Shown: positions 17,765 to 49,357 of the stretch, in pieces | Numbering within the stretch: position 1 is the first letter of the stretch | How the letters are laid out: every line of letters starts with the position of its first letter | NCBI GenBank assembly: GCA_003141835.1 | Contig: PLNR01000006.1 | Span: 142,558-206,557 of the forward strand | Direction of reading: 5' to 3' | Length of the DNA stretch: 64,000 bases | Origin: Candidatus Omnitrophota bacterium | GTDB lineage: Bacteria > Omnitrophota > Gorgyraeia > Pluralincolimonadales > Pluralincolimonadaceae | The notes under the pieces: generated by a model | What the model was told of the DNA's origin: nothing | Databases searched by the model: none | Seen by the model: the letters and a program-made list of their open reading frames with translations, nothing else | Made by a program: the position numbers and the translations under genes

Positions 17765-17992
17765 CTAATAATTAAAAATATCTTTAATAGCAAAATTATC
17801 TTCCGGCTTTAGCGCGCGAAGGGCATTCAGAATCTTATGTTGGATATTAAGGGTTAATCGCCTTCCCTTGCGCCCCTTTTGCACCATCTTATGCGACAAC
17901 TGCTCAGTGGAAATCTTAACAAGGTCAGAGTTTGAAAAACCTAGCCGCACCATGATCCTGTCAAGCGGCTGGATGCCTAATTCTTCCTTCAT
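17765..17992 (-). CDS. small hypothetical protein (75 aa), basic, possibly DNA-binding
   Basis: Its ATG overlaps the TGA of the upstream NYN gene (ATGA). Flanked by a roughly 30-bp direct repeat. Confidence 0.35.
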   Translation of the reverse strand: MKEELGIQPLDRIMVRLGFSNSDLVKISTEQLSHKMVQKGRKGRRLTLNIQHKILNALRALKPEDNFAIKDIFNY

Positions 17993-18360
17993 ATTTTACT
18001 CCAAAACTCCTCGCATTTCATCGGCGTTGCACGCGCATCCTTCGCATAAAAATACAGCGAGCGGTCGGAGGAGACGACACGCAGGTTGCGGCGCTGGCGC
18101 GGCGGGATCTGGTCGATGTGTTTCTTTATGTAAGAGTCGGCGTTCCGGGCCGCGACGATATGCAGTTTCGCCGTGCTCCTGTTCGGTATATCGAGATATT
18201 CATTCTTGCTGTCGAATACAAGGGTGATGGGGTCGGCGTGGGTCTCCTGGAACTTCTCCAGGATAGCGATCAGGTGCATGGCGCCGGCCAGGGCGTCGTC
18301 ATGATCTATCCCTGAGCCTTCGTGGCGGACCATGTTCCAACCGTCTATAAGTATAGGCAT
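17989..18360 (-). CDS. NYN/PIN-like (YacP-like) domain protein
   Basis: N-terminal ILIDGWNMV and acidic residues are typical of YacP/NYN nucleases. Confidence 0.5.
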   Translation of the reverse strand: MPILIDGWNMVRHEGSGIDHDDALAGAMHLIAILEKFQETHADPITLVFDSKNEYLDIPNRSTAKLHIVAARNADSYIKKHIDQIPPRQRRNLRVVSSDRSLYFYAKDARATPMKCEEFWSKI

Positions 18361-18373
18361 GGCTCCCTAGCAC

Positions 18374-19516
18374 CTAAACCTTTTCGTGGCTAAATTGGCG
18401 CAGATAATCACTGTACATAAACTTGCGATTGCGCTCTTTTCCGGTTATTTCATATAATATGTCTGCCTTAACAAACTTTTCTATCAACTGAAGGATATTC
18501 GCTTTAGAGGATATTCCGGTAATCCGCGAGGCAATCCCTGAATCTACTATAGGGGTTGAATATAGTTTGTTTAACAGTTTTAAGGCTGTTGCGGAATTTC
18601 TGCCCATGCCGGAAACCTTCCTGATGTGCTCCTCCCTTAATTTTGTGATCTTTTGGGCAGTTATCACGGCTTCCTCAGAAACTTCGCGTACGCCTACAAG
18701 AAAATATTTTAGCCAATCTTCTATACCTTTATTAAACCTATATCCGTTTAATTTATCGTAATAATTTGTACGGTGTTTTTTAAAATACTCCGAAATATAC
18801 AAAAGTGGCCGGGACAGCACCTGTTCTTTGTAAAGATAAAAAGTAATCAAGAGTCTCCCCATCCTTCCGTTACCGTCAAGGAACGGATGGATGGTTTCAA
18901 ATTGAGCGTGTATAATGCCGGCTTTTATTAAAGGCGGAAGTTTCGTGGTTTCATCGTGCAAGAACTTTTCCAGATCAGACAAAGATTCATGCATTTGGTG
19001 AGCGGGCGGAGGAACAAAAAAAGCTGTTTCTATAGTAGGGCCTCCTATCCAATTTTGGGAAGTCCTGAATTCCCCCGGATTTCTGTGCTGCCCACGCACT
19101 CCTTTAAGCAAGGCGGAATGCATTTCTCTTATCAAACGCCAGGAGAGAGGAAAGGTCTTTAGCCTTTCTATGCCATGATCCATTGCGGTTATGTAGTTTT
19201 TTATCTCATCGACATCCGAAGGGGAATCCTTATCCTTTAGTTTCGCCTCCGCTTTTATGTAATCGATGAATGTCGCCTGAGTACCTTCTATCTGGCTTGA
19301 TAACGCGGCTTCTTTCGTAACGTACATGTAGATAAAGAAATTAACGTCGGGGACAAGCTGGTCTATGGCATTGAGACTACCTATAGCGCGATCTGCCTTT
19401 GAGAGAAGCATGATTAAATTGTCATCCCAGTTTATGAGATGCTCAGGTGGAAATTTTGCCGGTATAAACGCCTTGTAACCTGTAGGTTGCTGTTGATAAA
19501 AACCTATTTTTCCCAT
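18374..19516 (-). CDS. Fic family protein (probable AMPylase) with C-terminal winged-helix
   Basis: Canonical Fic motif HPFLDGNGRMGR within a 380-aa ORF. Confidence 0.85.
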   Translation of the reverse strand: MGKIGFYQQQPTGYKAFIPAKFPPEHLINWDDNLIMLLSKADRAIGSLNAIDQLVPDVNFFIYMYVTKEAALSSQIEGTQATFIDYIKAEAKLKDKDSPSDVDEIKNYITAMDHGIERLKTFPLSWRLIREMHSALLKGVRGQHRNPGEFRTSQNWIGGPTIETAFFVPPPAHQMHESLSDLEKFLHDETTKLPPLIKAGIIHAQFETIHPFLDGNGRMGRLLITFYLYKEQVLSRPLLYISEYFKKHRTNYYDKLNGYRFNKGIEDWLKYFLVGVREVSEEAVITAQKITKLREEHIRKVSGMGRNSATALKLLNKLYSTPIVDSGIASRITGISSKANILQLIEKFVKADILYEITGKERNRKFMYSDYLRQFSHEKV

Positions 19517-19688
19517 TTCATCCTCCCAGAACTACTGTTTTGGTTAGTTCTGGATAAGTAGTATATCCGATACTTACGCAATATGCAAGTTTTAATTTCA
19601 ATGATTCCAACGTGTTAGAGTAGCTCAATAATTAGTTCTGGTTAATGCCATTATCCAGAACTTGATATTTTCTAAGTTCTGGCTACAG

Positions 19689-22600
19689 TTACCCCCAGCA
19701 GATATCGTAAAAATCGCATTTATTGTTGCCCTGGCCGCATTTGCCGGGTTTCTCGTCGATCTCCGGCAGTTTGGCGAAGTCGAGCTTCCTGATGCGGCGG
19801 CTAACGTCCTTTATGAGCGACTCGAGCTCGGCGACCATATCCTCGGTCAGCTCGACCTTCTTCTTGACGAATTCGCCTTCCTTGAGGTCGTGCTTTATGA
19901 CCGTCTCTTTAGCCGGGTCGAGGAAGACGAGCACCCCCTCCTTTACCTTGCGGCCCTGTGATTCCTTCTTGTCCCTGTCGAAGAGGAGTTTATACGCGAT
20001 GAGCTGGCGCAGGTACCCCTCGAACTCATCACTTGATACCGGTATCTTTTTCGCGAGAGAATTATTGATCCCTTTGACATGTCTATCCGGTTCACCCGTT
20101 TTATAATCTATCACACGAACGGCGGCGGTGCCCGCGGGTTCGGTTTTATCATATTTTCCGGTAAATTTCAGGTCGTCATCGAGCATGACCATCAGGTTTT
20201 TCTCGAGGCCGAGCGGCTTTATCGGCGCGCGTGATTCTTCCTTGAACCAGGCCTTGAACGTCTCGACCTGGCGCAGGCAGGCGGTCTTTATCGCCGCTTC
20301 CGGGGCTTCGTGGCTTAATTCCCTGGTGAACGCCTCCTTGAAGAACGCGAAATCCGGGAATTTGCCGGTCTTCATGAATTTATCATAGGTATTTTCCAGC
20401 GCCTTGTGGGTGCAGTTACCGAAGACGAGCGGCTGCTTCTTGCCCGACGGCAGCATCAGGGCGTTATCATAGAGATATTTGCGCGGGCAATTTATATAAT
20501 TGTTGAGCGATGTGGGGTTGAGCGAGATGCCGGCGACGAGGTCTTTCAATATCTTGTCGGTGCCGATGAACGGGTCTTCTGCGTCGGTTATCTCGAGCGC
20601 GGCTTTGAGCAGGTCCTCTTCTTTATTTGCGGAGGCCTCCCCATCGGCCACGCCCGTAAGATACGAGCTCGGGATCGCGCTCTCGGTCGGGCTGGCGGTG
20701 TAGATGAGGTTCGCCTTGGCGCGCGTCGAGGCGACGTAGAACAGGCGCGTCTCGTCGTAATAATCGAGTTGCTTTAAGATATCCTTGTCGGGCGGGATCT
20801 CCTTCGACTTGTAGACCTCGGGCGGGAGCGGGATCGAGACGCCCTGCGGCCGCTTCGGCCAGCGCTTCTTTTCGAGGCAGAACGGGATGAATACCGTGTG
20901 GAATTCGAGGCCTTTCGAGCCGTGGGCCGTGTAGATGCGCACGCCTTCCTGCGTGGCCGTGACGAGCTCGCCCTTCAGGGACATGCCGTGGGCCTTGCGG
21001 GTCTCGAGCTCATCGATGAATTCCTTGAGCGTGATGCCCGGGCGCGCGATGTCGGATTCCTTGACCATGTTGACGAATGACGTTAGCGCGCGCAGGTCGC
21101 GGATGCGCAGGAGATCATTATCATCATATTTATCCAAGATGAACTTCAAAACCCCTGCATCTTTGATAAATTGCATCAAAATTGCATGCACTGGTCTACT
21201 TTCGGCTTCAAAAAGCAAAGCAGAAATCGAAGCTAAATTTGGGGACGTTTCAAAAAGGGACACTTCACCCACTGAAGTATTAGCAGGGGTGAAATGTAAC
21301 CCTTTTTGAAACGTCCCCAAGCGCATTAGCTCGCTGAACATCGAAATCGTCGGGGCTTCGCCCTTCTTGCGCTGGTCATATTTTTTCACCCGGACTTCGG
21401 CGATGAAGCGCAGGACGTCGCTCATCGGGATGTGCATGTAATCGGCGGTCAAAATGCGGTAGAGATAGGCGTCTTTCTGCTCTATATCGATGTCGGGCGT
21501 GTGCGCGAAATAGAGCACGTCGAGCATCTGGCGGACGCGCTTCTCGCCGGCGATGTCCTCCTTGCCGTCGGTTGCGTACGGGATACCGGCGCGCAGGAAA
21601 GTGTCGACTATTTTGAGGATATCGTCGCGCTGGCGCACGAGGACGGCGACTTCATCAAGCGGGACCTCCTCCTTCTTCGCGATCTCCTTTATGCGGCGCG
21701 CGATAAAGAGCAACTCCTCGGTCTCGGTCGTGAATTCGTCATATTCGATGGTCTTTTTCTTGAAATCTGTCTCCGGCGCGAGTTCTTTGGCGTGGACGCG
21801 CTCTTTAACCGGAAGGTTATTTATTATGCGGCCTGCGAGCGAGATTATCTCTTTTGTCGAGCGGTAGTTCTTTTCGAGCGGGATCTCTTTTAATTTCGGA
21901 AATCTCTTCTTTAGTTCGCGGAAATTCGCTACCGACGCCCCCTGGAACCTAAAAATAGATTGGTCGTCGTCCCCTACGCAGCAAATATTCGTGCCGCCTA
22001 GCTCGAATAATAAGTCCATCTGCGCGCCGTTGGTGTCCTGGAACTCATCAACCATGATGTAGGTGTACTGCTTCTGGAGGGCGGATTTGAGCTCCGGTTC
22101 ATTGCGGATCGCCTCGACCGCGAAAAGTATCATATCATCGTAATCGTAGCGGCCCCGGTCATCGAAAAGTGCCTTATTTTTGCCCGCTTTGTACTCTTCA
22201 TACAGCTTATATACGGTGGCGAGGGCCTTGAGACGTTCTATGTGCTTTTCTTCAATGTAGGCGCCGTCAGGCTCGGTTTTTTCTATTATCTCAGCGAACT
22301 GCGCCGGCGAAACACCTTCGCGCTTAAGCTCGGTTATCCGCTGGCTTATCTCGCGCTCAAAAGCGTACGGCGCGCGGAACGGCCGGATCTTATCGATGCC
22401 GTCAGTATTATCCAAAATATATTCGAGGAGCTTTATCTGCTCGATATCGGTTATCTGGACGCGTTCCTGGATGTATTCGGCCGCCTCTTCGGACTCCAAC
22501 ACGACAGAATTCGCGAAACTGTGGAATGTCGCCGTTTCAATATTGTAAGCGGCGGCTCCAAGGAGTTTCACGAGGCGCTCTTTCATCGCCTTCGCGGCGG

Positions 22601-22775
22601 CATTCGTGTATGTTAGGATGAGGATATTCTCGGGGCGGGCCTTCTTTGCCTTAATTATGTTCGCCGCGCGGACGGAAAGCAGCTCGGTCTTGCCTGTTCC
22701 GGGTCCGGCTAGGACTAAAACGGGGCCATCGAGGGTCTCGGCGGCTAATTTTTGCTTGGTATTCAGATTGATCAT
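19689..22775 (-). CDS. UvrD/PcrA-like SF1 helicase fused to a C-terminal PD-(D/E)XK Cas4/AddB-like nuclease with Cys cluster
   Basis: Walker A LAGPGTGKT and helicase motifs in the N-terminal 650 aa. C-terminal segment VIDYKTGEPDR...QLIAYKLL plus Cys residues (NCPRKY...CGQGNNKCDFYDIC). Start taken at MINLN (ATG 22775). The track ORF extends to 22823. Confidence 0.8.
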   Translation of the reverse strand: MINLNTKQKLAAETLDGPVLVLAGPGTGKTELLSVRAANIIKAKKARPENILILTYTNAAAKAMKERLVKLLGAAAYNIETATFHSFANSVVLESEEAAEYIQERVQITDIEQIKLLEYILDNTDGIDKIRPFRAPYAFEREISQRITELKREGVSPAQFAEIIEKTEPDGAYIEEKHIERLKALATVYKLYEEYKAGKNKALFDDRGRYDYDDMILFAVEAIRNEPELKSALQKQYTYIMVDEFQDTNGAQMDLLFELGGTNICCVGDDDQSIFRFQGASVANFRELKKRFPKLKEIPLEKNYRSTKEIISLAGRIINNLPVKERVHAKELAPETDFKKKTIEYDEFTTETEELLFIARRIKEIAKKEEVPLDEVAVLVRQRDDILKIVDTFLRAGIPYATDGKEDIAGEKRVRQMLDVLYFAHTPDIDIEQKDAYLYRILTADYMHIPMSDVLRFIAEVRVKKYDQRKKGEAPTISMFSELMRLGTFQKGLHFTPANTSVGEVSLFETSPNLASISALLFEAESRPVHAILMQFIKDAGVLKFILDKYDDNDLLRIRDLRALTSFVNMVKESDIARPGITLKEFIDELETRKAHGMSLKGELVTATQEGVRIYTAHGSKGLEFHTVFIPFCLEKKRWPKRPQGVSIPLPPEVYKSKEIPPDKDILKQLDYYDETRLFYVASTRAKANLIYTASPTESAIPSSYLTGVADGEASANKEEDLLKAALEITDAEDPFIGTDKILKDLVAGISLNPTSLNNYINCPRKYLYDNALMLPSGKKQPLVFGNCTHKALENTYDKFMKTGKFPDFAFFKEAFTRELSHEAPEAAIKTACLRQVETFKAWFKEESRAPIKPLGLEKNLMVMLDDDLKFTGKYDKTEPAGTAAVRVIDYKTGEPDRHVKGINNSLAKKIPVSSDEFEGYLRQLIAYKLLFDRDKKESQGRKVKEGVLVFLDPAKETVIKHDLKEGEFVKKKVELTEDMVAELESLIKDVSRRIRKLDFAKLPEIDEKPGKCGQGNNKCDFYDICWG
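21241..21319. mobile_element. MITE-like structured element inside the helicase-nuclease CDS (perfect 19-bp terminal inverted repeats GGGGACGTTTCAAAAAGGG / CCCTTTTTGAAACGTCCCC plus nested hairpin)
   Basis: It is embedded in an AT-rich stretch of about 200 bp (21125-21330) within an otherwise GC-rich gene. The reading frame is maintained. Its core is related to the island repeats U1-U3. Confidence 0.45.
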
Positions 22776-22822
22776 ATTTATGCTATAATTGGATGGTATA
22801 ATTATACCCCAAGGAGGACGCA
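22776..22822. promoter_or_regulatory. divergent promoter region (two TATAAT boxes, RBS AAGGAGGA for the plus-strand gene)
   Basis: TATAAT at 22784-22789 and 22797-22802. AAGGAGGA 5 nt upstream of ATG 22823. Confidence 0.35.
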
Positions 22823-23155
22823 ATGAAAACTGCTATTATTATGTTATCTGTTCTCTCTTTTACCCTTTTCGTGAGCCCGGCAACGGTCAAGGCCGAAGGC
22901 ACCAGCGGCACGCTCGCCGCGCAGGTAGATACGGTCACTGTGGCACAGACCGAGGGCGAGGATTCCACCGTTTCAGTTGTAGATGAATCCGGCGTCACGA
23001 TACTCTTTTATGTGACAGCCGCAACCGTCATCTCCGGCCCGATAGGCGAGCCGATAAGCCTCGGCAATATCAACCAGAACGACCCGGTCGAGATAGAATA
23101 CGATAATCTCGAGGGCGGGGTCGGGCTGGCGAAGTCAATAAAACTAACAGAGTAA
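22823..23155 (+). CDS. small secreted protein, paralog 1 of 3 (possible OB-fold periplasmic protein)
   Basis: Signal peptide. Shares the C-terminal pattern of hydrophobic and Gly positions with 25322-25636 and 25662-26000. Confidence 0.5.
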   Translation: MKTAIIMLSVLSFTLFVSPATVKAEGTSGTLAAQVDTVTVAQTEGEDSTVSVVDESGVTILFYVTAATVISGPIGEPISLGNINQNDPVEIEYDNLEGGVGLAKSIKLTE

Positions 23156-29024: not shown

Positions 29025-30758
29025 CTACCAGCCCCCGCCTCCCCCTCCGCCGCCGCCACCTCCCCCGCCTCCCCCTCCGCCGCTGAAACCGGAGCTTGAA
29101 CCCGGAGCGACCGAAGAAGAAGATATGGAACTTGCGAGCGAACCTCCTAATGACGAAAAACCGGTGATGCCTCCGAACCTCGTTACGCCGATACCCGGCC
29201 CTCTATACCAAACCGGCGAGTATCCTTCGCCTCCCGTACCGGCGCGCGATAACACATCGGTGAATTTTTTCGCCCAGGCGTTCTCCAGGTCGAGCGCGAC
29301 AGCGTACGGCAGGTATTTCTCGAAAAGTTCCGGCGTCTTCGCCGGCGCGGCCATGCCTGCTATCTCGTCCTTTTCCGCCGTGCGGAGGTACATTCCGAAA
29401 CCTTCTATCTGGTCCATGACGGTCCTGCCTGCAAGCGTCGGCGCCTTAAGCAGCTGGTAGAAGATAAAATTAAGCGCGGCGAGAATAATAGATGATGCGA
29501 AAGTGCTTAAAGTATCCATGGACGATAATAACGCGACGGAGAGGATGGTAATAATAGATATCACCATGCCGGGGACAAAATATTGCGCGTTGGTCAGGAA
29601 ATATGTCTTCTCGAACTCCGTCTTTAGGGTATCCTTGAGCGAATCTATCGCCCCCGCTACTTCATCGTGATTGGCGTTCTCGAATTTGAAGTACTTCCGC
29701 TCCCCCATAAGCTCATCGGCTATGACCTTTTCTTCCGGGCTTAAGTTCGACGGATCCGCGGGACCGCGGTCTACGGAATAAGTTCCGTCCTCTTCAATTA
29801 TGGTGAAATACCTTTTGACCGCCATATTTATTACTGCCGAGGAGAAACACTTGGCATCATAACCCATATTTTTTATATAACGGATCGCGGACGGAGATAC
29901 GCCTTTCGGCGGCGCAAATAACGGGATTATGGTCCCTTTCGGCGGATTTTTGCCGAAGAGAGCCCAGGTAATGATGAAGTAAACAAAAAGCACGACGACA
30001 CCCAGCGCGCCGGCAGCCAAGCCGGGATTATCACTCAGGAAATACATCCATTTCTCCCGGGCGGTCAGCTCATGCACAAAACCTTTCGGCCAACCGACCA
30101 CGATCGTTAAGCCCTCGCGGGGGGCAAGCGGCCGTGTCGTCACAAAAACCGGCCTGCCCTCATTATCGAAGGATACATTAGAATCTTTCGCGTGCGAACC
30201 TAGCGGCCCGGTGTATTCATCTGTCTTTATCACGTCCCGGGCGATCCCCGCAGGGAGGACCACGGTCGCGGACGCGTTGAGGATCGGGAAATCCCACCCG
30301 TTACCCGTGACATTCCAATAGAGTTCATCGTGGTCCTTGAAAAATCCCAGCTGGCGGTTGGTGTCATATTTTATCGTATATGTATGGACTCCGGGCTGGA
30401 CATAAGTATTTTCGTTGCCTATGTAGACCCTTTCCCCGTTCGAGAGCGCGGCAGTATGATACGGCTCGGGCGTCCCGTCGCGCAGGACCTCTTTCACAGT
30501 AAAACCTACGGAATACCGGAGCGAGGTGCCGTTTTTGTAGATCGTATATTTTGTCGGGAAATCGCGGTATATGCCGTGCCTTATCCGGTAATTCTCGGCG
30601 TTTACCTTTATAGCCTCGATCACCGACATCGTCGAGTCCTGATGTACGGTAATGAGGCTGTCAAAGGAGAGTATGCTTTCGGAGGCACGGGAAACAGGCA
30701 AAGCAAAAAGGATAGCTATGAGGAAGAATACCGCGAAAAGGGATCTTTTCCCAAACAT
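29025..30758 (-). CDS. DUF2207-family membrane protein with C-terminal poly-glycine tail
   Basis: Signal peptide, large extracytoplasmic domain, TM region, then a run of about 17 Gly ending in W. LemA gene adjacent. Confidence 0.6.
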   Translation of the reverse strand: MFGKRSLFAVFFLIAILFALPVSRASESILSFDSLITVHQDSTMSVIEAIKVNAENYRIRHGIYRDFPTKYTIYKNGTSLRYSVGFTVKEVLRDGTPEPYHTAALSNGERVYIGNENTYVQPGVHTYTIKYDTNRQLGFFKDHDELYWNVTGNGWDFPILNASATVVLPAGIARDVIKTDEYTGPLGSHAKDSNVSFDNEGRPVFVTTRPLAPREGLTIVVGWPKGFVHELTAREKWMYFLSDNPGLAAGALGVVVLFVYFIITWALFGKNPPKGTIIPLFAPPKGVSPSAIRYIKNMGYDAKCFSSAVINMAVKRYFTIIEEDGTYSVDRGPADPSNLSPEEKVIADELMGERKYFKFENANHDEVAGAIDSLKDTLKTEFEKTYFLTNAQYFVPGMVISIITILSVALLSSMDTLSTFASSIILAALNFIFYQLLKAPTLAGRTVMDQIEGFGMYLRTAEKDEIAGMAAPAKTPELFEKYLPYAVALDLENAWAKKFTDVLSRAGTGGEGYSPVWYRGPGIGVTRFGGITGFSSLGGSLASSISSSSVAPGSSSGFSGGGGGGGGGGGGGGGGGW

Positions 30759-30768
30759 GGGACCTCCT

Positions 30769-31326
30769 TTATATTTTTACTTCGGGGGCCTGGCGCTCCG
30801 TCGCTAATTCTATTTCAAAAAATTCAGCTTTGCCAAAATGGAAAGAGCCGGCTATCATGCTGCTGGGAAAGGTCTGCGACAGGATATTATAATCGCGGAC
30901 CGTGCCGTTGTAATAACGGCGGGCCATCTGGAGGTTGTCCTCTATATCAACAAGGTTCTTGTGCAGGTCGAGGAAACTCTGGCTGGCTTTAAGTTCGGGG
31001 TACGCTTCTACTACTGCAAAAATTGATTTTAATGAGCGGGAGATCGCATTCTCCGGGCCGGCTTTATCCTGCGGCCCTTCCGCGGCTGTGGCTTTGGAAC
31101 GCAAAGCGGTGACTTCTTCTAGGGTCTTCCTTTCGAATTGCTTGTATCCTTTGACGGCCTCTACGAGGTTCGGGATGAGGTCTGCGCGGCGCTTAAGCTG
31201 GACGTCTATCCCGCTCCAGGCCTCTTTCATCAGGTTCTTGTATTTGATAAGGAGATTATAAGTAAAAACAGTCCATATTACCAGCCCGGCTAAAAGCAAT
31301 AACCCTGCGGTCCCGTATCCCAGCAT
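30769..31326 (-). CDS. lemA: LemA family protein
   Basis: N-terminal TM plus LemA-like helical region (NLLIKYKNLMKEAWSGIDVQLKRRADLIPNLVEAVKGY). Confidence 0.7.
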   Translation of the reverse strand: MLGYGTAGLLLLAGLVIWTVFTYNLLIKYKNLMKEAWSGIDVQLKRRADLIPNLVEAVKGYKQFERKTLEEVTALRSKATAAEGPQDKAGPENAISRSLKSIFAVVEAYPELKASQSFLDLHKNLVDIEDNLQMARRYYNGTVRDYNILSQTFPSSMIAGSFHFGKAEFFEIELATERQAPEVKI

Positions 31327-31335: not shown

Positions 31336-32232
31336 CTACTTAGTAAGCGGTTTGCCGTCCAGCGGCGGGCTGATCTTCCCCACGTCCACACCAAACCTGT
31401 CGAGGATAGTCGGGGTGACGTCTGATTGGAAACCCTGCCTTATCCCCCTCGGGTCGTTCGTGGCCATGAAGACGTACGGTGCATAACCGTGGCCCTTTTG
31501 CCCCTCATCAAAACCGTGGTCGGCGGTCACATAGATGATCGTCGTATCGTATAATTTCAGGTCTTTAAGCTTTTTGACGATGTCGCCTGTCAACTTATCG
31601 CAGGCGATGAGCGCGTCGTTGTATTCTTTCGAATTCTCGCCGAATTCATGGCCCTTGCTGTCGATCGCGGCGAACTGCAGGAAAAAGAAGAACGGCCTTC
31701 CTTTGTATTCCTCGAGAAGCCTCTCCGCCTCGCTCGCGACCCTCTGGTCTTCGTTGAGGCCGTTCTTGAATACGTCGGTCTCCTTGGCGGCATTGTAATA
31801 CGGCTTATCGGGGCTGTCGGATTTAAAACGATGGCCCTTATTATAAAGTGCCACCGTCACGAATTTATCGTGCCCGAAATGGTCCTCGAGCCGCTCGAAT
31901 ATCGTATAGCCTTTCGGTATCGCCTGATATTTTTCGTTACTGCGGACGCCCGAGGTCTCGGCTTTATATCCGGTGAGTATCTGCGCGAAACCGGGCTCGG
32001 TCTCGGTCTGGTGGCCCTGGACGTCTATCTCGACGAACGAACCTTCTGACGATAATTTTTTGAGGTACGGGAGTTCGCCGCGGCCGAGGCATTCCTTCAC
32101 GTGGTTCAATTGCGCCCCGTCCCAGCCGATGAGTACTATATCTTTCGGCCGCTCGTTTAATCCCAGCGCATATGATGGGACCGTAATACAGAGCGCGGCG
32201 CAAAACGCCAGGAAAAGCGCAAACCTCTTCAT
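31336..32232 (-). CDS. secreted alkaline-phosphatase-superfamily enzyme (nucleotide pyrophosphatase/phosphodiesterase-like)
   Basis: Signal peptide. LIGWDGAQ and VTADHGFDE metal-binding motifs. Confidence 0.55.
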   Translation of the reverse strand: MKRFALFLAFCAALCITVPSYALGLNERPKDIVLIGWDGAQLNHVKECLGRGELPYLKKLSSEGSFVEIDVQGHQTETEPGFAQILTGYKAETSGVRSNEKYQAIPKGYTIFERLEDHFGHDKFVTVALYNKGHRFKSDSPDKPYYNAAKETDVFKNGLNEDQRVASEAERLLEEYKGRPFFFFLQFAAIDSKGHEFGENSKEYNDALIACDKLTGDIVKKLKDLKLYDTTIIYVTADHGFDEGQKGHGYAPYVFMATNDPRGIRQGFQSDVTPTILDRFGVDVGKISPPLDGKPLTK

Positions 32233-34010
32233 TTATTTACCAGTCCGCGTTTGGTGTATGTCGTGTGCAGGAGATGGTGCGACTTCTCCCCGAGCGGCTC
32301 GACCAGGAATTCCTTGTAGATAGCTGTGATCGAGGGGTTCTCGTGCGATTTCCTTATCGGTTTGCCCAGGTCTTCCCTGTATATCGCTTCAGCCCTCTTC
32401 TTTCTCACTTCGGTATTCGTGGGGATGGGCTGTCCGCCGCCGCCGAGGCATCCGCCCGGGCAGCACATTATCTCTATGAAATGGTACGGGGACTTGCCGG
32501 CCTTGACCTCGTCCAGCAATTTCCGCGCGTTCGCCAGGCCGCTCGCGACCGCGACCTTTACCTTCAGCCCGTCGACGTCTACCTCTGCGGATTTTATCCC
32601 TTCGAAGCCGCGGACGGCCTGAAAATCGAGCTTGTCGAGCTTCTTCTTCGTGATGACTTCATACGCGGTCCTTAACGCGGCTTCCATGACGCCGCCTGTC
32701 GCGCCGAATATTACGGCCGCGCCGGTCGACTCGCCGAGCGGATTGTCAAAATCCTCATCGGGAAGTTTATTGAAATCGATGCCCGCTTCTTTTATCATCT
32801 GGGCGGCTTCCCTCGTCGTAAGGACGTAATCGACGTCCGGGAACTTGTCGCTCTCCTTGTATGCCTTCTTGTCTTTCCAGTATTCGAAGGCACTGTCCAT
32901 CTCCGGGCGTTTCGCCTCGAATTTCTTCGCGGTGCAAGGCATTATCGAGACGACTACCATATCTTTCGCGTCTACGCCGGCCTTCTCCGCGTAATAGGTC
33001 TTCGCGACCGCGCCGAACATCTGCTGCGGCGATTTGCAGGTCGAAAGATGGTCGAGGAGATCCGGGAAAAAATGCTCGCTGAACTTTATCCATCCCGGGG
33101 AGCACGATGTTATAAGGGGAAGCACGCCTTTATTCTTTATCCTGTCGATGAGCTCGAAGCCCTCCTCCATAATGGTGAGGTCTGCGGTAAACTGCGTGTC
33201 GAAGACTTTATTGTACCCGAGCCTGCGGAGCGCCGCGGTCATCTTTCCGGTAACAAGCGTCCCGGCAGGCAGGCCGAATTCCTCGCCTATCGCGGCCCTT
33301 ACAGCCGGCGCGGTCTGGACTACGACGGTCTTCTTCGGATCGTGTATAGCCTTCCATACGTCGTCTATCGAGCTCTTCTCTGTCAATGCGCCTGTCGGGC
33401 AGACGAGTACGCACTGGCCGCAGTTAGCGCATTCGACCTTGCCGAGCCCTTCGTTAAAAAATGTCGAGACGATCGTCTTGCTGCCCCTGTTCACGAAATC
33501 GATAGCATTGACCGACTGGACCTGCGAGCAGACCGCGATGCAGCGTCCGCAAAGTATGCATTTGTTGGGGTCGCGTATGATCGACGGGGAGCTCAGGTCG
33601 ACGTCGAAGTCGCGTTTCCGCGTCTTCGCGAACCTGACATCCCTTATGCCGAGGTCCGAGGCCAAGATGCGCAATTCGCAGGTCTCGTTTTTGTCGCAGG
33701 TCGGGCATTCTTTCGGATGGCCCGCAAGGAGGAGTTCGACGTTCATCCTGCGCGCGCCGCGGACTGCCGGCGTGTTTGTGTATATCTCCATACCTTCGGA
33801 GACCTTCGTTATGCACGCCCTCAAAAGGCTCTTGGCGTTCCTGACTTCGACGCAGCAGACGCCGCACGAAGCGTTCTCGGATATCCCCTCGAGATAGCAG
33901 AGCGTCGGTATATCGATCCCCGCTTCCCTGGCCGCCTTAAGTATCGTCGTCCCTTCGGCCGCTTTGTATTCTTTCCCGTCTATCTTTATGTTCATTATCC
34001 TGTCGGCCAT
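32229..34010 (-). CDS. hydA: [FeFe]-hydrogenase catalytic subunit HydA (N-terminal 2Fe-2S and 4Fe-4S ferredoxin domains plus H-cluster domain)
   Basis: H-cluster motifs MPCTAKKFE and EIMCCPGGCLGGGGQP are present. Motif 1 reads TSCSPGW instead of TSCCPxW. Start taken at MADRIM, overlapping the hydB stop. Confidence 0.8.
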   Translation of the reverse strand: MADRIMNIKIDGKEYKAAEGTTILKAAREAGIDIPTLCYLEGISENASCGVCCVEVRNAKSLLRACITKVSEGMEIYTNTPAVRGARRMNVELLLAGHPKECPTCDKNETCELRILASDLGIRDVRFAKTRKRDFDVDLSSPSIIRDPNKCILCGRCIAVCSQVQSVNAIDFVNRGSKTIVSTFFNEGLGKVECANCGQCVLVCPTGALTEKSSIDDVWKAIHDPKKTVVVQTAPAVRAAIGEEFGLPAGTLVTGKMTAALRRLGYNKVFDTQFTADLTIMEEGFELIDRIKNKGVLPLITSCSPGWIKFSEHFFPDLLDHLSTCKSPQQMFGAVAKTYYAEKAGVDAKDMVVVSIMPCTAKKFEAKRPEMDSAFEYWKDKKAYKESDKFPDVDYVLTTREAAQMIKEAGIDFNKLPDEDFDNPLGESTGAAVIFGATGGVMEAALRTAYEVITKKKLDKLDFQAVRGFEGIKSAEVDVDGLKVKVAVASGLANARKLLDEVKAGKSPYHFIEIMCCPGGCLGGGGQPIPTNTEVRKKRAEAIYREDLGKPIRKSHENPSITAIYKEFLVEPLGEKSHHLLHTTYTKRGLVNK

Positions 34011-37000
34011 TAGATTGCCTCCTTCACATCGCATCTCAAGCAGCGGGTAGTCTCAGTTTTTACGTCATCCCAGCACAATCCGAGCGATACTTCTTTAAAG
34101 TTCTTCTTCCTGGCTTTCACCGAGAGCGTCTTCGGATACCTCCTGCCCTCAGGGCTCGGCTCGAGCGGGACAATGTTCTTATATTTGAATTTCTTCGACA
34201 GCATCTCTATCCTCTTCTCCCCCATGAGGTCAAGGTCGATCGCCTCGGCAGCTTTTCTGCCTTGGGCCATCGCCTCGACCGCGGTCGCAGGCCCCATGAC
34301 AAGGTCGCCGCCCGCATAAATTTTAGGATCGACGGTCTGGAGCGTGGATTTATCTACTTTTATCGTACCGTCCTCGTTGGCGTCGATGCCGACATTGCGT
34401 ATGAAGCCCGAGTCGACGCGCTCGCCTATGGCGAGTATGACCGAGTTGCAGGTGATCGCCTCGTATGTATCGGTCGCGACAGGCCTTCTCCTGCCGGATA
34501 GGTCGAATTCACCCGGCTTCATCTTGCTTATCTCTATGCCCTTCACTTTTCCTTTTTCGCCGATGATGGATTTCGGAGCGGCAAGGAAGATGAATTTAAT
34601 TCCTTCATGCTCGGCTTCTTTGATCTCTTCTTTATTCGCAGGCATATCCGCTTTCTCGCGGCGGTAGACTACCGTGACGTCGCTGCCGAACCTGAAAGCG
34701 GTCCTGGCCGCGTCTATGGCGACGTTACCGGCGCCGATTATCGCTACTTTCTTGCCTATCGCCGGTTTCTTTCCGGTTGCCACCTGCTCTAAGTATTCGG
34801 TCCCGCGCAGGACTCCTTTAAGGTCCCTGCCGGGGATGTCGAGGTCCATCTCTTTATACGCGCCCGTCGCGAGGAAGATCGTGTCGAACGAACTCTCGAG
34901 TTCACGCAATTTCTTCTCGCTGACTTTAGAGTTAAAAATGAACTTCACCCCGAAGTCCTTGATGAACTTAATCTCCCTTTCAAGGACGTCCTTCGGCAGC
35001 CTGTATGACGGTATGCCGTACATCAGGACGCCGCCGGCCTTCGGTTTCTCTTCGTACACTGTCACCGAATGGCCGAGCCGCGCCAGGTAATAAGCCGCGG
35101 TAAGTCCGGCCGGGCCAGCGCCGACTACGGCGATCTTTTTCCCGGTCGCAGGCAGTTTCTCTTTCAATAACCTGCGCATGACCGGCTTGTCCTTGCCGTA
35201 TTTGTGCATATTATCGGCGACGAAGCGGTGTATCTCGCCCTGGGATACCGGATCGTCGATATCCTCCCTCCTGCAGCGCATCTTGCAATGGAAATGGCAT
35301 ATCCTTCCCGAACTTGCCGGGAAAGGATTGTCGCGCAGGATAAGGTCATACGCGTCGTCCATCTGCTTTTCGTTCACCAATTCGAGGAAGCCCGGGATGT
35401 TCATATGGAGCGGGCAGCTGTTCTCGCACGGAGATAGGAACAGCGACTGGCAAACGCCTGCGTCGCATCTCTTGTCCCTTATGTGCTCCTCGTATTCGTC
35501 CCTGAAATATTTCAGCGTCGTAAGGACCGGGTTCGGCGCTGTCTGGCCGAGGCCGCATATCGCCGTATCCTTTATGACCTTGCCGAGGTCTTCGAGGGTC
35601 TTGATGTTTTCCATCTTGCCCCTTCCCTCGGTTATGTCCTTTAAGATCTTCAACGCCTGCTGTAGCCCCTCGCGGCACGGCGTGCACTTGCCGCACGACT
35701 CGGAAGTGGTGAATTCTATGAAATAGCGGGCGACATCGACCATGCAATTGTCCTGGTCCATGACGACCATACCGCCTGAGCCGAGTATCGCGCCGAGCTG
35801 CGCGAGGTTCTCGTAATCTATCTTGGAATTAAAAAGCGACGCCGGGATGCATCCGCCTGAAGGGCCGCCTGACTGGACCGACTTGATGACCTTATTCTTG
35901 CCGCTACCCTCGCCCATCTGGTAGATGAGAGAAAGTATCGGCGAGCCGAATGGCAGTTCCACAAGCCCCGTATTCTTCACCTTGCCTACGAGCGAAAATA
36001 CTTTTGTGCCGGCGCTCGCCGACGTGCCTGTCTGCGCGAACCACTGGCCGCCCCTGGCGATTATCGCCGGGACGTTGCTTAATGTCTCGACATTATTTAT
36101 GGTCGTGGGTTTGTCCCATAATCCCTTCTCCGCCGGGAAAGGAGGCCTGGGCCTCGGACGGCCGGGCTTGCCTTCGAGCGAGAATATGAGCGCCGTCTCC
36201 TCGCCGCAGACGAACGCGCCCGCGCCCTCGACTATCTGGATGTCAAAACTAAAATTTGTCCCCATTATATTCTTCCCGAGGAAACCCCACTCCTCGGCCT
36301 GGACGAGCGCCTTCTTTATCCTCTGGACCGCCAATGGGTATTCGGCGCGGATGTAGATTATCCCGGCGGTAGCGCCCATCGTATAAGCGGCTATCGCGAT
36401 GCCCTCTATCAGCATGTGCGGGTCGCTCTCTATCTCGTTGCGGTTCATGTAAGCGCCCGGGTCGCCTTCGTCGGCGTTGCACGCTACAAATTTTTGGTCG
36501 GCCTTTATGCCGCGCATGATCTCCCATTTCCTCCACGGCGGAAAACCCGCGCCGCCCCTGCCCCTCAACTTCGAGATCTTGAGCTCTTCTATGATCTTCT
36601 CAGGGGTCATGCTAGTGATGGCTTTATATAACGACTGGTAACCGCCGACCGCTATGTAATCGTCTATGTTCTCGGGGTCTATGAGTCCGCAGTCCCTCAG
36701 GACTATCTTCTTTTGCCCCTTAAAGAACGGCACCTCGTTCCAGATCGGGACTCCTGGCCAACCACGCCCGTATATCACCTTTCCGGTGATGTGGTCCCAT
36801 TCCTCGATCTTGCATAATACCCTTTCCTCATATATGTCGCCCTTCATAGTTTTTTCAACTATCTTCGCGGCGTCCTTCGGTTTGACCTTAGAGAGGATGA
36901 TAAGCGGTTTCCCGGGCATATAAATATTTACCACCGGCTCGTCGGCGCAGAAACCGAAACAGCCGACCTTTCCGAGGGATATCTCGGCCTTCTTCCTGCG

Positions 37001-37153
37001 CAGCGATTTCTCGAGTTCCTTATATACCTCGTCGGCGCCGTTCCCGATGCCGCAGGTGCCCATGCCCACGGAGATCCGCGGCCTGTGCGACAATATCTGC
37101 CTTAGCCTTTTATCGCGTTCGCTGTTCAATTGTTCAAGATTGGCTATGTTCAT
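34010..37153 (-). CDS. hydB: HydB (NuoF-like flavoprotein, Complex1_51K) fused to a GltD-like FAD/NAD(P)H oxidoreductase domain, 1047 aa
   Basis: N-terminal thioredoxin-like 2Fe-2S region, GGAGFP FMN/NADH site, FeS Cys motifs. Then C-x-C-rich linker, VAVVGAGPAGLTAAYYLARLG and a second AIIGAGNVAIDAART Rossmann motif typical of GltD/NfnB. Confidence 0.8.
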   Translation of the reverse strand: MNIANLEQLNSERDKRLRQILSHRPRISVGMGTCGIGNGADEVYKELEKSLRRKKAEISLGKVGCFGFCADEPVVNIYMPGKPLIILSKVKPKDAAKIVEKTMKGDIYEERVLCKIEEWDHITGKVIYGRGWPGVPIWNEVPFFKGQKKIVLRDCGLIDPENIDDYIAVGGYQSLYKAITSMTPEKIIEELKISKLRGRGGAGFPPWRKWEIMRGIKADQKFVACNADEGDPGAYMNRNEIESDPHMLIEGIAIAAYTMGATAGIIYIRAEYPLAVQRIKKALVQAEEWGFLGKNIMGTNFSFDIQIVEGAGAFVCGEETALIFSLEGKPGRPRPRPPFPAEKGLWDKPTTINNVETLSNVPAIIARGGQWFAQTGTSASAGTKVFSLVGKVKNTGLVELPFGSPILSLIYQMGEGSGKNKVIKSVQSGGPSGGCIPASLFNSKIDYENLAQLGAILGSGGMVVMDQDNCMVDVARYFIEFTTSESCGKCTPCREGLQQALKILKDITEGRGKMENIKTLEDLGKVIKDTAICGLGQTAPNPVLTTLKYFRDEYEEHIRDKRCDAGVCQSLFLSPCENSCPLHMNIPGFLELVNEKQMDDAYDLILRDNPFPASSGRICHFHCKMRCRREDIDDPVSQGEIHRFVADNMHKYGKDKPVMRRLLKEKLPATGKKIAVVGAGPAGLTAAYYLARLGHSVTVYEEKPKAGGVLMYGIPSYRLPKDVLEREIKFIKDFGVKFIFNSKVSEKKLRELESSFDTIFLATGAYKEMDLDIPGRDLKGVLRGTEYLEQVATGKKPAIGKKVAIIGAGNVAIDAARTAFRFGSDVTVVYRREKADMPANKEEIKEAEHEGIKFIFLAAPKSIIGEKGKVKGIEISKMKPGEFDLSGRRRPVATDTYEAITCNSVILAIGERVDSGFIRNVGIDANEDGTIKVDKSTLQTVDPKIYAGGDLVMGPATAVEAMAQGRKAAEAIDLDLMGEKRIEMLSKKFKYKNIVPLEPSPEGRRYPKTLSVKARKKNFKEVSLGLCWDDVKTETTRCLRCDVKEAI

Positions 37154-37671
37154 TTCTTCTTACCTCCCCGGCTGAGCTCTTTTACCATCCTTGATAATCT
37201 CCCTGTGTCCATATGGACAAATATTTTGCCGTCCAGGACAACGACCGGCGCGAGCGCGCATTGGCCGAAGCAGGCGACCGTCCTCACCGTGAATTTATTA
37301 TCGGGCGTCGTATAGAACGACTCGCCCTCGTCAAAAACCCCTTTTATCTTCAATATGCTTTCGAGATGCTCTAACAATGCCTTTGAACCCTTCGTGTGGC
37401 AGGCCGTCCCCCTGCATACTATTATCGAATGCTCGCCCTGCGGTTTAAGGTTAAAAAATGCGTAAAAAGTGGCGACGCTGTAGATCTTCGAGGCCGGCAG
37501 GTCGAGGCTCCCGGCTATGTATTCAAGCGTCTCCCTTGGGAGATATTTATGCCTGTGGAGCTCCTGCGCCTCTTCGAGGATACAAAGGACGTCGCCCGGC
37601 CCTCCCTTATATTTCTCGATTATCCTGTCCAGCGATTTCGTATCGACGTCTTTTTCCAAAGTTGCTTTCAT
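37150..37671 (-). CDS. hydC: HydC / NuoE-like thioredoxin-fold [2Fe-2S] subunit
   Basis: CRGTACH...CFGQCALAP motifs. Confidence 0.75.
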   Translation of the reverse strand: MKATLEKDVDTKSLDRIIEKYKGGPGDVLCILEEAQELHRHKYLPRETLEYIAGSLDLPASKIYSVATFYAFFNLKPQGEHSIIVCRGTACHTKGSKALLEHLESILKIKGVFDEGESFYTTPDNKFTVRTVACFGQCALAPVVVLDGKIFVHMDTGRLSRMVKELSRGGKKK

Positions 37672-38306
37672 ACACGTTCTCCTTTTAATTTATATATCAG
37701 GCCCTGAAGCTCTGAGGCCATATCTACGTTCGAGACTGAAATTTTTTTGGGTAACATGAGGTTTACCGGCGCGAAGTTCAATATCGCCTTTACGCCGCAG
37801 GCTGCGAGCTCCTCGCCGACTTCCTGCGCCTTATCGGCCGGGACCGCGAGGATAGCTATCTTTATCCCCTTTTTCCTTAATACGCCCCTCATCGACTTGG
37901 CGTCTTCTATCGTTATGCCCTTGCGGACCTTGCCTATCCTTTCAGGGTCATTATCGAATGCGGCGTTGATCTGGAGGTTAGATTCCGTGAAACCGGGGTA
38001 TCCCAGGAGGGCTGAGCCGAGCTTGCCGGCCCCGACGATGGCTATCTTCCACGCTACGTCGGCGCCGAGGATCTTTTCTATCTCTTTTGTAAGCGCGCTT
38101 GTGCCGTAGCCGACGCCGCGCTTTCCGAAGCCGCCGAAATAAGAGAGGTCCTTCCTGAACTGGACTGACGAGACATTGAGGAACTCGGTGATGTCCTCAG
38201 ATGAGGCGACGTCCACTCTCTTCTTCTCAAGCATCCTTAAGCTTCTAAGGTATAGGCTTAAACGGCTTGCTGTATCCTGGGGAATGTACTTTTTAGTTTT
38301 GGGCAT
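37668..38306 (-). CDS. rex: redox-sensing transcriptional repressor Rex
   Basis: N-terminal winged helix (RLSLYLR) plus Rossmann GAGKLG. Overlaps hydC by 4 nt. Confidence 0.8.
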   Translation of the reverse strand: MPKTKKYIPQDTASRLSLYLRSLRMLEKKRVDVASSEDITEFLNVSSVQFRKDLSYFGGFGKRGVGYGTSALTKEIEKILGADVAWKIAIVGAGKLGSALLGYPGFTESNLQINAAFDNDPERIGKVRKGITIEDAKSMRGVLRKKGIKIAILAVPADKAQEVGEELAACGVKAILNFAPVNLMLPKKISVSNVDMASELQGLIYKLKGERV

Positions 38307-38317: not shown

Positions 38318-38335
38318 TTGTTACGATTTTCACAA
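38318..38335. promoter_or_regulatory. candidate Rex operator (TTGTTACGATTTTCACAA)
   Basis: Close match to the TTGTGAA-N4-TTCACAA Rex box consensus, immediately upstream of the rex start. Confidence 0.55.
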
Positions 38336-46214: not shown

Positions 46215-48773
46215 CTAATCATAACCGAATTTCTTTACGAACCAGGTTTTCACGACCTGCACCAGCAGCATATATGTCACGACCATGACAAAAAGGATCA
46301 CGAAGAATAATGGCGGTGGCGCCACGAACCCGAAGGACTTGGCCAGTGGAGACAAGGGAATTAATATGCCCATCGCGACTATGGCTATTGACGTCATAAT
46401 AAGGAACTTGCTCGGCCTGCTCTCGATGAACGGTATCTTTCCGGTGCGTATGACGTGGATGATGAGCGTCTGGGTGCAAAGAGACTCTATAAACCAGCCC
46501 GTGTGGAACAATTCCGGGTTGTTCCAGGTATTGAATACGAAAAGCATCACGCCGTAAGTCAGGAAATCATAGATAGAGCTCAGCGGGCCTATAAACACCA
46601 TGAAATTCCTTATCGACTTGATGTTCCAGGCGCGAGGTTTCACGAGGTACTCCTTGTCCACTTCGTCGGTGGGTATGGCTACCTGCGACAGGTCGTAAAG
46701 GAAGTTATTAAGCAGGATCTGTATCGGCAGCATCGGCAGGAACGGCAGGAAGATGGTACCGCCGGTCATGCTGAGCATATTCCCGAAGTTCGAGCTGGAA
46801 CCCATTTTTATATATTTTATTATATTGCCAAAAGTCTTCCTCCCTTCTACGACCCCGTCCTCGAGGACTAGAAGATTTTTTTTGAGGAGTATTATATCCG
46901 CGGATTCCTTCGCTATGTCCACGGCGTTATCCACGGAGATGCCGACGTCTGACGCCTTCAGCGCCGGCGCGTCGTTTATGCCGTCGCCGAGGTAACCTAC
47001 TATATGTTTATTCCGGTGGAGAGCCCGGATCACCCGCTCTTTCTGGAGGGGCGACATTCGCGCGAAGACGTTCGAGGTCTCGGCCGCAGCCTGGAGTTCG
47101 GCATCGGACATCTTTTCCAATTGTTCGCCTATGATAAGGCCCGTGATATTGAGGCCTACCTCATTGCATATCTTTTTCGTGACGAGCTCGTTATCGCCCG
47201 TCAGGACCTTGAACTGTATCCCCTGCTTAGTAAGCGCCTCGATAGCCTCTTTCGCGTCCGCCTTCGGAGGGTCAAGGAAAGCGACATAGCCCTTCAGGAC
47301 GAGCTCCTGCTCGTCATCCCGCGAATAGGCCTCTTTCTTTGTCTCCTCATCCTTATAGGCGATGGCGAGGACCCTGAAACCGTCGGTGCTCAGCCTGTCG
47401 TATTCTTCCCTCAGATCCGCCAAAAGCCACTGCTCCATCTCGAATATCTCGCCGTCAAGCTCATAGTGCGTGCAGCGTTTGAATATCTCTTCCGGCGCGC
47501 CTTTCGCGATAAGCGTATGCTTGCCGTCCATCCCCACAACGACCGACATGATCTTCCTCGAAAAATCGAACGGCATCTCGTCTATTTTTTTGAACTCCTT
47601 GACAGGCATCTTCTTGTACTTCAGGATGGCCTTATCGAGGAGGTTCTTAAGCCCTGTCTGGTAGTAGCTGTTAAGGTACGCGTACTTCAGGACGGTCTCG
47701 TCGTCTTTCCTGACCACGTCGCAATGCTTCTCCAGGATGATGTGGTCCATGGTCAAGGTGCCGGTCTTATCGGTGCAGATGACGTCCATGGCGCCGAAGT
47801 TCTGGATCGAGTTCAAGCGCTTTACTATGACGTCTTTCTTGGACATCGCGATAGCGCCCTTTGAAAGGTTAAGGGTGATGAGCATAGGCAGCATCTCCGG
47901 AGTCAAGCCTACCGCCACGCCGAGAGAGAAAAGGAAAGCCTCCCTGAAAGGGCGCCCGCGCAACGCGTTTATCCCGAAGATGACTATTACCATGAATATC
48001 ATCGCCCGGATCATGAGCCACGTGAAACTGTTCACGCCCTTGTCGAAGCTCGTCTCGATCCTCATGGTAGCCAGCCTGCGCGATATTTCGCCGAACTGCG
48101 TCGAGATGCCTGTCTTTACGACCACCGCCAGCGCAGTGCCGCTTACCACGCTTGAGCCCATGAACGCGATATTGCGCAATTCCGAATTAGCGGAGGATTT
48201 TGCCTGTACCGGCCCGGCGACTTTCTCTATAGGGAAAGATTCCCCTGTCAAAGAGGCCTGGTTGATAAAAAGGTCCTTGCACGAGATTATCCTTAAGTCG
48301 GCAGGGATCATGTCGCCGGCGAAAAGGTCTACGATATCGCCCGGGACGATTTCGCGGATATTTATCTCTTTCGGCCTGCCGTTCCTGTAAACGGTCGCGG
48401 TCGTGTGTACCATCTCGCTGAGTTTTTCGACGGCTTTTTCGGAACGGTGCTCCTGTATGAACGAAAGGAACACGCTAAGGACGATCATCAGGAAGACAAG
48501 GAAGGCGCTCACCGTAGAGCCGGAATAGAGGGAAAATCCGCAGATGATTATAAGGACGATCACGAGCGGGTTTACGAACTTGGAGAGGATCTGGGTAAAG
48601 ATAGTCCTCTTCTTCTTCCTGGCGGGCTCATTTAACCCGTAATACTCGAGGCGTTTTTTCGCTTCTTTCTCGGAAAGGCCCTTCTGGGAGGTTTTAAGCT
48701 TTAAAAAGACCTCCTCGATGGGGGTGCTGATATAATTAAAAGACGGGCTAGATATTTTCGGTAAGGACTTCAT
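46215..48773 (-). CDS. mgtA: magnesium-translocating P-type ATPase (MgtA-like)
   Basis: DKTGTLT, TGES and GDGINDAPAL motifs. 852 aa with 10 TM segments. Confidence 0.8.
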   Translation of the reverse strand: MKSLPKISSPSFNYISTPIEEVFLKLKTSQKGLSEKEAKKRLEYYGLNEPARKKKRTIFTQILSKFVNPLVIVLIIICGFSLYSGSTVSAFLVFLMIVLSVFLSFIQEHRSEKAVEKLSEMVHTTATVYRNGRPKEINIREIVPGDIVDLFAGDMIPADLRIISCKDLFINQASLTGESFPIEKVAGPVQAKSSANSELRNIAFMGSSVVSGTALAVVVKTGISTQFGEISRRLATMRIETSFDKGVNSFTWLMIRAMIFMVIVIFGINALRGRPFREAFLFSLGVAVGLTPEMLPMLITLNLSKGAIAMSKKDVIVKRLNSIQNFGAMDVICTDKTGTLTMDHIILEKHCDVVRKDDETVLKYAYLNSYYQTGLKNLLDKAILKYKKMPVKEFKKIDEMPFDFSRKIMSVVVGMDGKHTLIAKGAPEEIFKRCTHYELDGEIFEMEQWLLADLREEYDRLSTDGFRVLAIAYKDEETKKEAYSRDDEQELVLKGYVAFLDPPKADAKEAIEALTKQGIQFKVLTGDNELVTKKICNEVGLNITGLIIGEQLEKMSDAELQAAAETSNVFARMSPLQKERVIRALHRNKHIVGYLGDGINDAPALKASDVGISVDNAVDIAKESADIILLKKNLLVLEDGVVEGRKTFGNIIKYIKMGSSSNFGNMLSMTGGTIFLPFLPMLPIQILLNNFLYDLSQVAIPTDEVDKEYLVKPRAWNIKSIRNFMVFIGPLSSIYDFLTYGVMLFVFNTWNNPELFHTGWFIESLCTQTLIIHVIRTGKIPFIESRPSKFLIMTSIAIVAMGILIPLSPLAKSFGFVAPPPLFFVILFVMVVTYMLLVQVVKTWFVKKFGYD

Positions 48774-49326: not shown

Positions 49327-49357
49327 TTTTGATTTCCTCCTCGGTGGGATGACTATA

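Follow-up and report, generated by a model that had tools for sequence, protein, structure and literature searches.

The 64-kb window analysed here (64,000 nucleotides, Candidatus Omnitrophota bacterium, contig PLNR01000006.1) encodes on its minus strand HydA, an [FeFe]-hydrogenase subunit in which the first H-cluster motif, termed L1, reads TSCSPGW. HydA very probably serves as the active catalytic subunit of an [FeFe]-hydrogenase of the HydABC/Bfu type, which would be multimeric, cytoplasmic and linked to pyridine nucleotides and have a Ser-ligated H-cluster, an assignment in which the Ser-Fe ligation and the activity are carried over from characterised homologs. All H-cluster residues are present in HydA, except that a serine, S312, takes the place of the fourth ligand of the [4Fe-4S] subcluster ([4Fe-4S]H). 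Within this explanation, the TSCSP HydA clade as a whole has the serine as its ancestral state, kept by selection, and catalysis is not abolished. The gene, its motifs and the key L1 residues are located as follows, with residue numbers that follow the 601-residue open reading frame (ORF):

32229..34034, minus strand: hydA, [FeFe]-hydrogenase catalytic subunit, a 601-residue ORF with Pfam, NCBIfam and PDB matches
33090..33110, minus strand: L1 motif TSCSPGW, residues 309-315
33102-33104, minus strand: C311, the proton-relay Cys, equivalent to C299 of CpI
33099-33101, minus strand: S312, codon TCC, in place of the [4Fe-4S]H ligand C300 of CpI
32916..32942, minus strand: L2 motif MPCTAKKFE, residues 365-373, with C367 (ligand C355 in CpI) and K370 (K358 in CpI)
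32427..32474, minus strand: L3 motif EIMCCPGGCLGGGGQP, residues 521-536, with C525 and C529 (C499 and C503 in CpI) and C524 at the position of CpI A498

The reverse complement of 33085-33110 reads ACA TCG TGC TCC CCG GGA TGG ATA AA and translates into TSCSPGWI, which bears out the replacement of TSCCPxW by TSCSPGW noticed in the initial annotation. Compared to the L1 consensus TSCCPxW, in which the relay Cys is followed by the [4Fe-4S]H ligand Cys, HydA keeps the relay Cys and has the ligand Cys replaced by Ser. The L2 motif MPCTAKKFE matches the consensus MPCxxKxxE and is indeed canonical, as had been stated. The L3 motif EIMCCPGGCLGGGGQP matches the consensus ExMxCxxGCxxGGGxP with both cysteines; it had been called canonical too, which holds for the two ligand cysteines but not for the residue ahead of the first one, where the Ala is replaced by Cys.

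Residue equivalences were taken from HMMER alignments to solved structures, and the residue numbers were recounted. The alignment of HydA with CpI of Clostridium pasteurianum is gap-free over 163 residues spanning L1 and the proton pathway, and it superimposes S312 onto C300 of CpI, which corresponds to Ser301 of Acetobacterium woodii HydA1, Cys299 of T. kivui HydA and C170 of CrHydA1, the HydA1 of Chlamydomonas reinhardtii. The recounted A. woodii and T. kivui numbers agree with those named in PMC10021017. No register shift that would restore two L1 cysteines appeared in the gap-free alignments to solved structures. Because the register is fixed in this way, the Ser substitution hits the cluster ligand and not the relay. 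The proton pathway is likewise intact, with E291, E294, R298 and S331 of HydA corresponding to E279, E282, R286 and S319 of CpI, in addition to C311 (CpI C299). The initial annotation had expected proton transfer or cluster ligation to be altered; the ligand position is changed, but the relay Cys and its pathway are kept.

Searching the solved structures revealed A. woodii HydA1 (7q4v_A; 7Q4V/8A5E) as the best match of HydA, aligned over its full length with an E-value of 2e-207 and 694 bits. They share an identical L1 segment, ITSCSPGWIKF, with Ser301 of A. woodii HydA1 at the [4Fe-4S]H ligand position, and both have the M3 domain architecture and NuoE/NuoF-like partners, HydC and HydB. However, the L3 of A. 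woodii HydA1 reads ELMACPGGC compared to EIMCCPGGC in our HydA, and A. woodii HydB has 599 residues with a C-terminal ferredoxin-like domain, whereas HydB of the window has 1047 residues with a GltD-like FAD/NADPH module. In the cryo-electron microscopy study of the A. woodii HydABC complex (Katsyv et al. 2023, PMC10021017), Ser301 was reported as a replacement cluster ligand, along with normal Fourier-transform infrared signatures and activity. Of the options raised initially, a Ser-ligated cluster is thus the one that the alignment and the described role of the equivalent A. woodii Ser support for S312 (PMC10021017). As this structurally and functionally validated enzyme deviates from TSCCPxW in the same manner, the textbook L1 consensus is too narrow and HydA is still a member of the family.

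The artificial CrHydA1 variant C170S provides a second parallel (Kertess et al. 2017, PMC5855289). It carries a Cys-to-Ser exchange at the equivalent ligand position, and this exchange still permits the [4Fe-4S] cluster to bind, [2Fe] to be inserted and H2 to be turned over. The variant kept its [4Fe-4S] cluster, inserted the [2Fe] subsite slowly, and was the most active of the CrHydA1 ligand variants, with a bias shifted to H2 evolution. Matured for 30 h, the variant had an activity of 231 µmol H2 per min per mg, against 728 in the same units for the wild type, and the authors concluded that the C170 position is highly tolerant of exchange (PMC5855289). As an artificial mutant made in a minimal algal enzyme, C170S is nevertheless less active and slow to mature, whereas the serine of HydA is natural and co-adapted. 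The canonical enzymes CpI (3C8Y/4XDC) and Thermoanaerobacter kivui HydA (8A6T) resemble HydA in fold, domain order, proton pathway and the L2/L3 cysteines; however, both contain TSCCP, with a Cys (C300 in CpI, C299 in T. kivui) where HydA has Ser312, and CpI is in addition monomeric and ferredoxin-dependent. An earlier record of the motif TSCSPGW comes from Melainabacteria, in whose trimeric confurcating hydrogenases Di Rienzi et al. (2013) pointed it out (PMC3787301). TSCSPGW is therefore already known as a published, conserved signature shared by active multimeric hydrogenases that form a large clade, and the novelty implied at first does not hold for a variant that is clade-wide and on record (PMC10021017, PMC3787301, PMC5855289).

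By analogy with the solved structure of A. woodii HydA1 and with C170S, [4Fe-4S]H would be held by C367, C525, C529 and S312, of which C529 would bridge to the diiron site. The oxygen of S312 is predicted to ligate the cluster iron, and the diiron subsite would be installed normally. During H2 turnover, C311 would relay protons at the end of the conserved pathway E291/E294/R298/S331. The O-ligand would at most tune the cluster potential or the catalytic bias. More speculatively, it might shift the potential of the cubane, and a C170S-like bias to H2 evolution would suit a fermentative, NAD(P)H-reoxidising hydrogenase under the control of Rex.

The serine is conserved far beyond the window. Among the 120 best protein database matches, which share 68-96% identity with HydA, [LM][IV]TSCSPGW is present in all 120; they are annotated as Omnitrophota, Cryosericota, Caldisericota, Elusimicrobiota, Deltaproteobacteria and Deferrimicrobium. 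In parallel, one genome per species was scanned with six peptide seeds, none of which covers L1, yielding 80 genomic loci of 57-96% identity. TSCSP is encoded in 80/80 of these loci, and the relay Cys is invariant across them. The loci include the cultured taxa Moorella thermoacetica, M. mulderi, Neomoorella, Desulfofundulus, Desulfotruncus, Desulforamulus, Thermoanaerobacterium and Cryosericum. The nearest one (L001), from an independent Omnitrophica metagenome-assembled genome, is 96% identical and has the Ser as well. Across the loci the Ser codons are AGC (47), AGT (13), TCA (11), TCG (10), TCT (2) and TCC (2), so that all six are in use. As both Ser codon families are used, and single-base changes interconvert them only by way of another amino acid, the serine appears to have been under long-standing selection.

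These data also bear on a sequencing or assembly error, in which the true codon would be TGC and the motif TSCCPGW. TCC and TGC are indeed only one base apart; yet the Ser recurs in the independent locus at 96% identity, in 80/80 loci and 120/120 homologs, and in six codons drawn from both families, and such an error is effectively ruled out. Two of the checks proposed initially, an alignment with CpI and a survey of close relatives for TSCSP, agree: the register is unshifted with the relay Cys kept and the ligand Cys replaced by Ser, and the relatives share the motif throughout.

A wider sample was drawn from 150 representatives of 50%-identity clusters, 131 of which have a readable L1. The motif is [TS]SCSP in 24/131 and TSCCP-like in ~100/131, with the Ser motif clustering in sequences near HydA; the seven full-length representatives closest to HydA (P0122-P0128) are all Ser-type. 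Mapping the Cys/Ser state by the Fitch method onto a neighbour-joining tree gave about 16 changes, on a rough tree built from a 781-column alignment of 340-residue fragments; as an indication only, this suggests that Ser occurs beyond a single tight clade. By analogy, about one in six divergent group-A representatives, along with the whole HydABC clade, would use Ser as the fourth [4Fe-4S]H ligand. Motif screens that drop TSCSP lose genuine hydrogenases, which calls for caution in annotation. One member of the representative library, P0121, is a protein of 4122 residues with seven HydA H-domain-like stretches, an L2 of MPCTVKKTE and an L3 of EIMMCEGGC; no recognisable TSCCP/TSCSP L1 was found in its sequence, and either a giant multi-hydrogenase fusion or a mis-assembly could account for it.

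Further analysis of L3 revealed that the extra cysteine goes along with the serine. The motif reads EIMCCPGGC compared to the usual ExMACxxGC, with C524 at the position of CpI A498, and a Cys occupies this position in 75/79 TSCSP loci. The residue before the first L3 Cys is A84/S12/T3/C1 in sequences with the ligand Cys, compared to C10/T8/A7/G4/S1 in those with the ligand Ser. C524 itself could accordingly be proposed as the fourth [4Fe-4S]H ligand, with S312 a permissive second-sphere residue, and the strong enrichment of this Cys with the Ser state speaks in its favor. However, Ala, Thr or Gly occupies this position in many Ser-type enzymes, including A. woodii HydA1 with Ser301 modelled as the ligand, and residues i and i+1 would seldom both reach one cluster; we consider C524 an improbable ligand. 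Because A. woodii HydA1 has Ala at this position, a Cys of the C524 type is not needed for a working Ser enzyme. The coupling between Ser and C524 still suggests a second-sphere adjustment.

The domain composition of HydA is that of a catalytic subunit. It has the M3 architecture, consisting of a [2Fe-2S] domain, a NuoG-type [4Fe-4S] domain, a 2x[4Fe-4S] F-domain, the H-domain and a small-subunit-like tail. Pfam matches comprise Fe_hyd_lg_C (PF02906, 3.4e-101), Fe_hyd_SSU (PF02256, 4.5e-25), Fer2_4 and NADH-G_4Fe-4S_3. HydA also scores 907 bits against the NCBIfam model NF040763 'NADH-dependent [FeFe] hydrogenase, group A6' (cut-off 765), covering positions 1-571 of the 571-position profile, and its close homologs carry the group A6 hydrogenase name at NCBI. 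Under the HydDB rule, HydA is assigned to group A3, since the neighbour gene contains NuoF (PMC5037454). The genes for a NuoF-like subunit (HydB) and a NuoE-like subunit (HydC) adjoin hydA, as expected for an electron-bifurcating HydABC. They form a tightly packed operon on the minus strand in the order rex-hydC-hydB-hydA, with rex first, hydA last and the adjacent start and stop codons overlapping:

34010..37153, minus strand: hydB-gltD fusion, 1047 residues, with Pfam Complex1_51K, NADH_4Fe-4S, Fer4_20 and Pyr_redox_2
37150..37671, minus strand: hydC, NuoE-like thioredoxin-like [2Fe-2S] subunit, with Pfam 2Fe-2S_thioredx (1.1e-39) and NCBIfam HoxE/NuoE-like matches
37668..38306, minus strand: rex, redox-sensing transcriptional repressor, with NCBIfam NF003995 (Rex) at 253 bits against a cut-off of 126
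38318..38335, no strand: inverted repeat TTGTTACGATTTTCACAA resembling a Rex operator, 12 bp ahead of the rex start codon

A deviating L1 motif is one of the hallmarks by which sensory [FeFe]-hydrogenases are flagged, and a sensory or otherwise atypical hydrogenase had been offered initially as an explanation of TSCSPGW. In its specific form, HydA would be a HydS-like regulatory protein of group C/D with an attenuated active site, and the deviation of its L1 is what this proposal draws on. However, Pfam detected no PAS, kinase, phosphatase or other signalling domain in HydA; the relay Cys and the entire proton pathway are kept; and the operon supplies NuoE/NuoF-type subunits. The top matches are to catalytic HydABC enzymes and to the curated group A6 model, whose cut-off HydA passes. 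A sensory role is thus extremely improbable, and HydA is better described as the catalytic subunit of a HydABC-type enzyme.

The HydB partner has an unusual composition. At its N-terminus is a thioredoxin-like region, followed by an FMN/NADH module of the NuoF type with a [4Fe-4S] cluster. After this comes a GltD/NfnB-like module, which combines a 2x[4Fe-4S] domain with motifs for FAD (VVGAGPAGL) and of the NADPH type (GxGxxA, here IIGAGNVAID). Structural database search showed that residues 23-572 match the B subunits of the Bfu type (7t2r_B, 9n5u_B and 7q4v_B), with alignments to HydB chains that end at query residue ~572, corresponding to chain residue ~540 of ~600. Residues 573-1044 match GltD-like NADPH/FAD modules, namely NfnA (9n5u_A), S. 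ovata StnC (8oh5_C) and P. furiosus NfnI-L (5jca_L). The C-terminal ferredoxin-like 2x[4Fe-4S] domain, the proposed ferredoxin site, was not detected in HydB by Pfam or PDB searches; behind the NuoF [4Fe-4S] domain, Pfam places the GltD-like Fer4_20 and Pyr_redox_2 instead. Of the 80 related loci, 36 have a fused hydB-gltD ORF immediately upstream of hydA, with cultured Moorella species, Pelotomaculum, Ignavibacteria and Syntrophales represented (the 36 include L001-L005, L017, L018, L021-L025, L027-L030, L032, L033 and L040-L045); in many other genomes HydA of the TSCSP clade is paired with an ordinary HydB of ~600 residues. The literature searched contained no description of this HydB-GltD architecture, although the search was limited and is no proof of novelty.

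Related arrangements are those of the Bfu-type complexes StnABC and NfnABC (8OH5, 9N5U; PMC7483475, PMC10482914), which likewise combine a NuoE/NuoF-like bifurcating core with a GltD-like NADPH/FAD module containing two [4Fe-4S] clusters. They differ in the placement of this module, which is found at the N-terminus of a NuoG-like subunit without an H-domain in Stn and Nfn-Bfu; at the locus described here, by contrast, the NuoF-like subunit carries it at its C-terminus, alongside a NuoG-like subunit that is a complete hydrogenase. Identification of the system as StnABC, in which StnC would have no H-cluster, was considered and rejected, as the GltD domain of Stn resides on a NuoG-like subunit lacking the H-domain (Kremp 2020, Kumar 2023).

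A related proposal would make HydA a dead scaffold with a vestigial H-domain in a Stn/Nfn-Bfu-like NADH:NADPH(:ferredoxin) transhydrogenase. All building blocks of Stn (NuoE-, NuoF-, NuoG- and GltD-like) are present at the locus, and the enzymes of the Stn family derive from HydABC-like ancestors (PMC7483475, PMC10482914), an ancestry in line with such a loss. However, StnC lacks the H-domain altogether, whereas HydA retains the relay Cys, the L2 Cys/Lys, both L3 Cys and the proton pathway, all of which are kept clade-wide down to 57% identity; since these H-cluster-specific residues are conserved across the clade, a vestigial site is unlikely. In addition, HydA of this clade also pairs with the ordinary ~600-residue HydB, and the related A. 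woodii HydABC is active. The scaffold proposal is accordingly very unlikely, and an active HydABC-type hydrogenase remains the preferred explanation.

Three observations weigh against this explanation. No hydE, hydF or hydG maturase genes were found within the 64-kb window. HydB, as a GltD fusion, belongs to an uncharacterised type, so that any assignment of the physiological electron carriers is provisional. Finally, the EIMCCPGGC of HydA differs from the ELMACPGGC of A. woodii, and the exact ligation could differ with it. A more far-reaching version, which we regard as rather doubtful, would have Ser312 and Cys524 as a co-evolved coordination that tunes the potential of [4Fe-4S]H and the catalytic bias, in an uncharacterised HydABC variant where an NfnB/GltD-type NADPH-FAD module stands in for the ferredoxin-binding tail. 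If true, the enzyme would couple H2 to NAD(H) as well as to NADP(H), perhaps with no part for ferredoxin, and would be widespread (36/80 related loci, including Moorella). The HydB-GltD fusion may define an unstudied, NADPH-linked branch of Bfu hydrogenases in cultivable acetogens.

The regulatory gene rex also adjoins the hydrogenase genes in the Omnitrophota loci L002, L003 and L005. Of the matches to TTGTGAANNNNTTCACAA in the window, the inverted repeat TTGTTACGATTTTCACAA in front of rex is the closest, with 2 mismatches; there are 5 matches in all compared to 1.95 expected, a count that is not significant. The position of TTGTTACGATTTTCACAA, in itself suggestive, points to a possible NADH/NAD+-responsive autoregulation of rex-hydCBA. 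At the other end of the operon, the longest ORF of hydA starts with the ATG at 34034 and has a 25-nt overlap with hydB. A second ATG at 34010 overlaps the hydB stop codon (TAATG) and lies 7 nt past the Shine-Dalgarno sequence GAAGGAGG (region 33995-34034, minus strand); translation from here gives 593 residues, equal in length to the 96%-identical homolog P0001. Owing to the TAATG overlap, the Shine-Dalgarno sequence and the length shared with P0001, the ATG at 34010 is probably the true start of hydA.

Among the other genes in the window, a pair of membrane proteins, LemA and DUF2207, is encoded at 29025-31326 (minus strand), and the DUF2207 protein ends with ~17 glycines followed by a Trp. 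The region 10909-22823 (minus strand) holds a run of genes of the defence/mobile type, including a metallo-beta-lactamase-fold protein, a D12 adenine methyltransferase, an Eco57I-like methylase, a Fic/DOC protein and a UvrD-helicase/PD-(D/E)XK nuclease of 1044 residues. The ORFs 12120-12965, 13989-15374 and 15620-16561 have no family match. Two genes of the rubrerythrin family lie at 48748-49398 (minus strand) and 57807-58763 (plus strand), one of which encodes 318 residues with an N-terminal extension; near them are genes for a Mg2+ P-type ATPase and for GH3/GH130 glycoside-active enzymes. The two rubrerythrins are consistent with an oxygen-stressed strict anaerobe.

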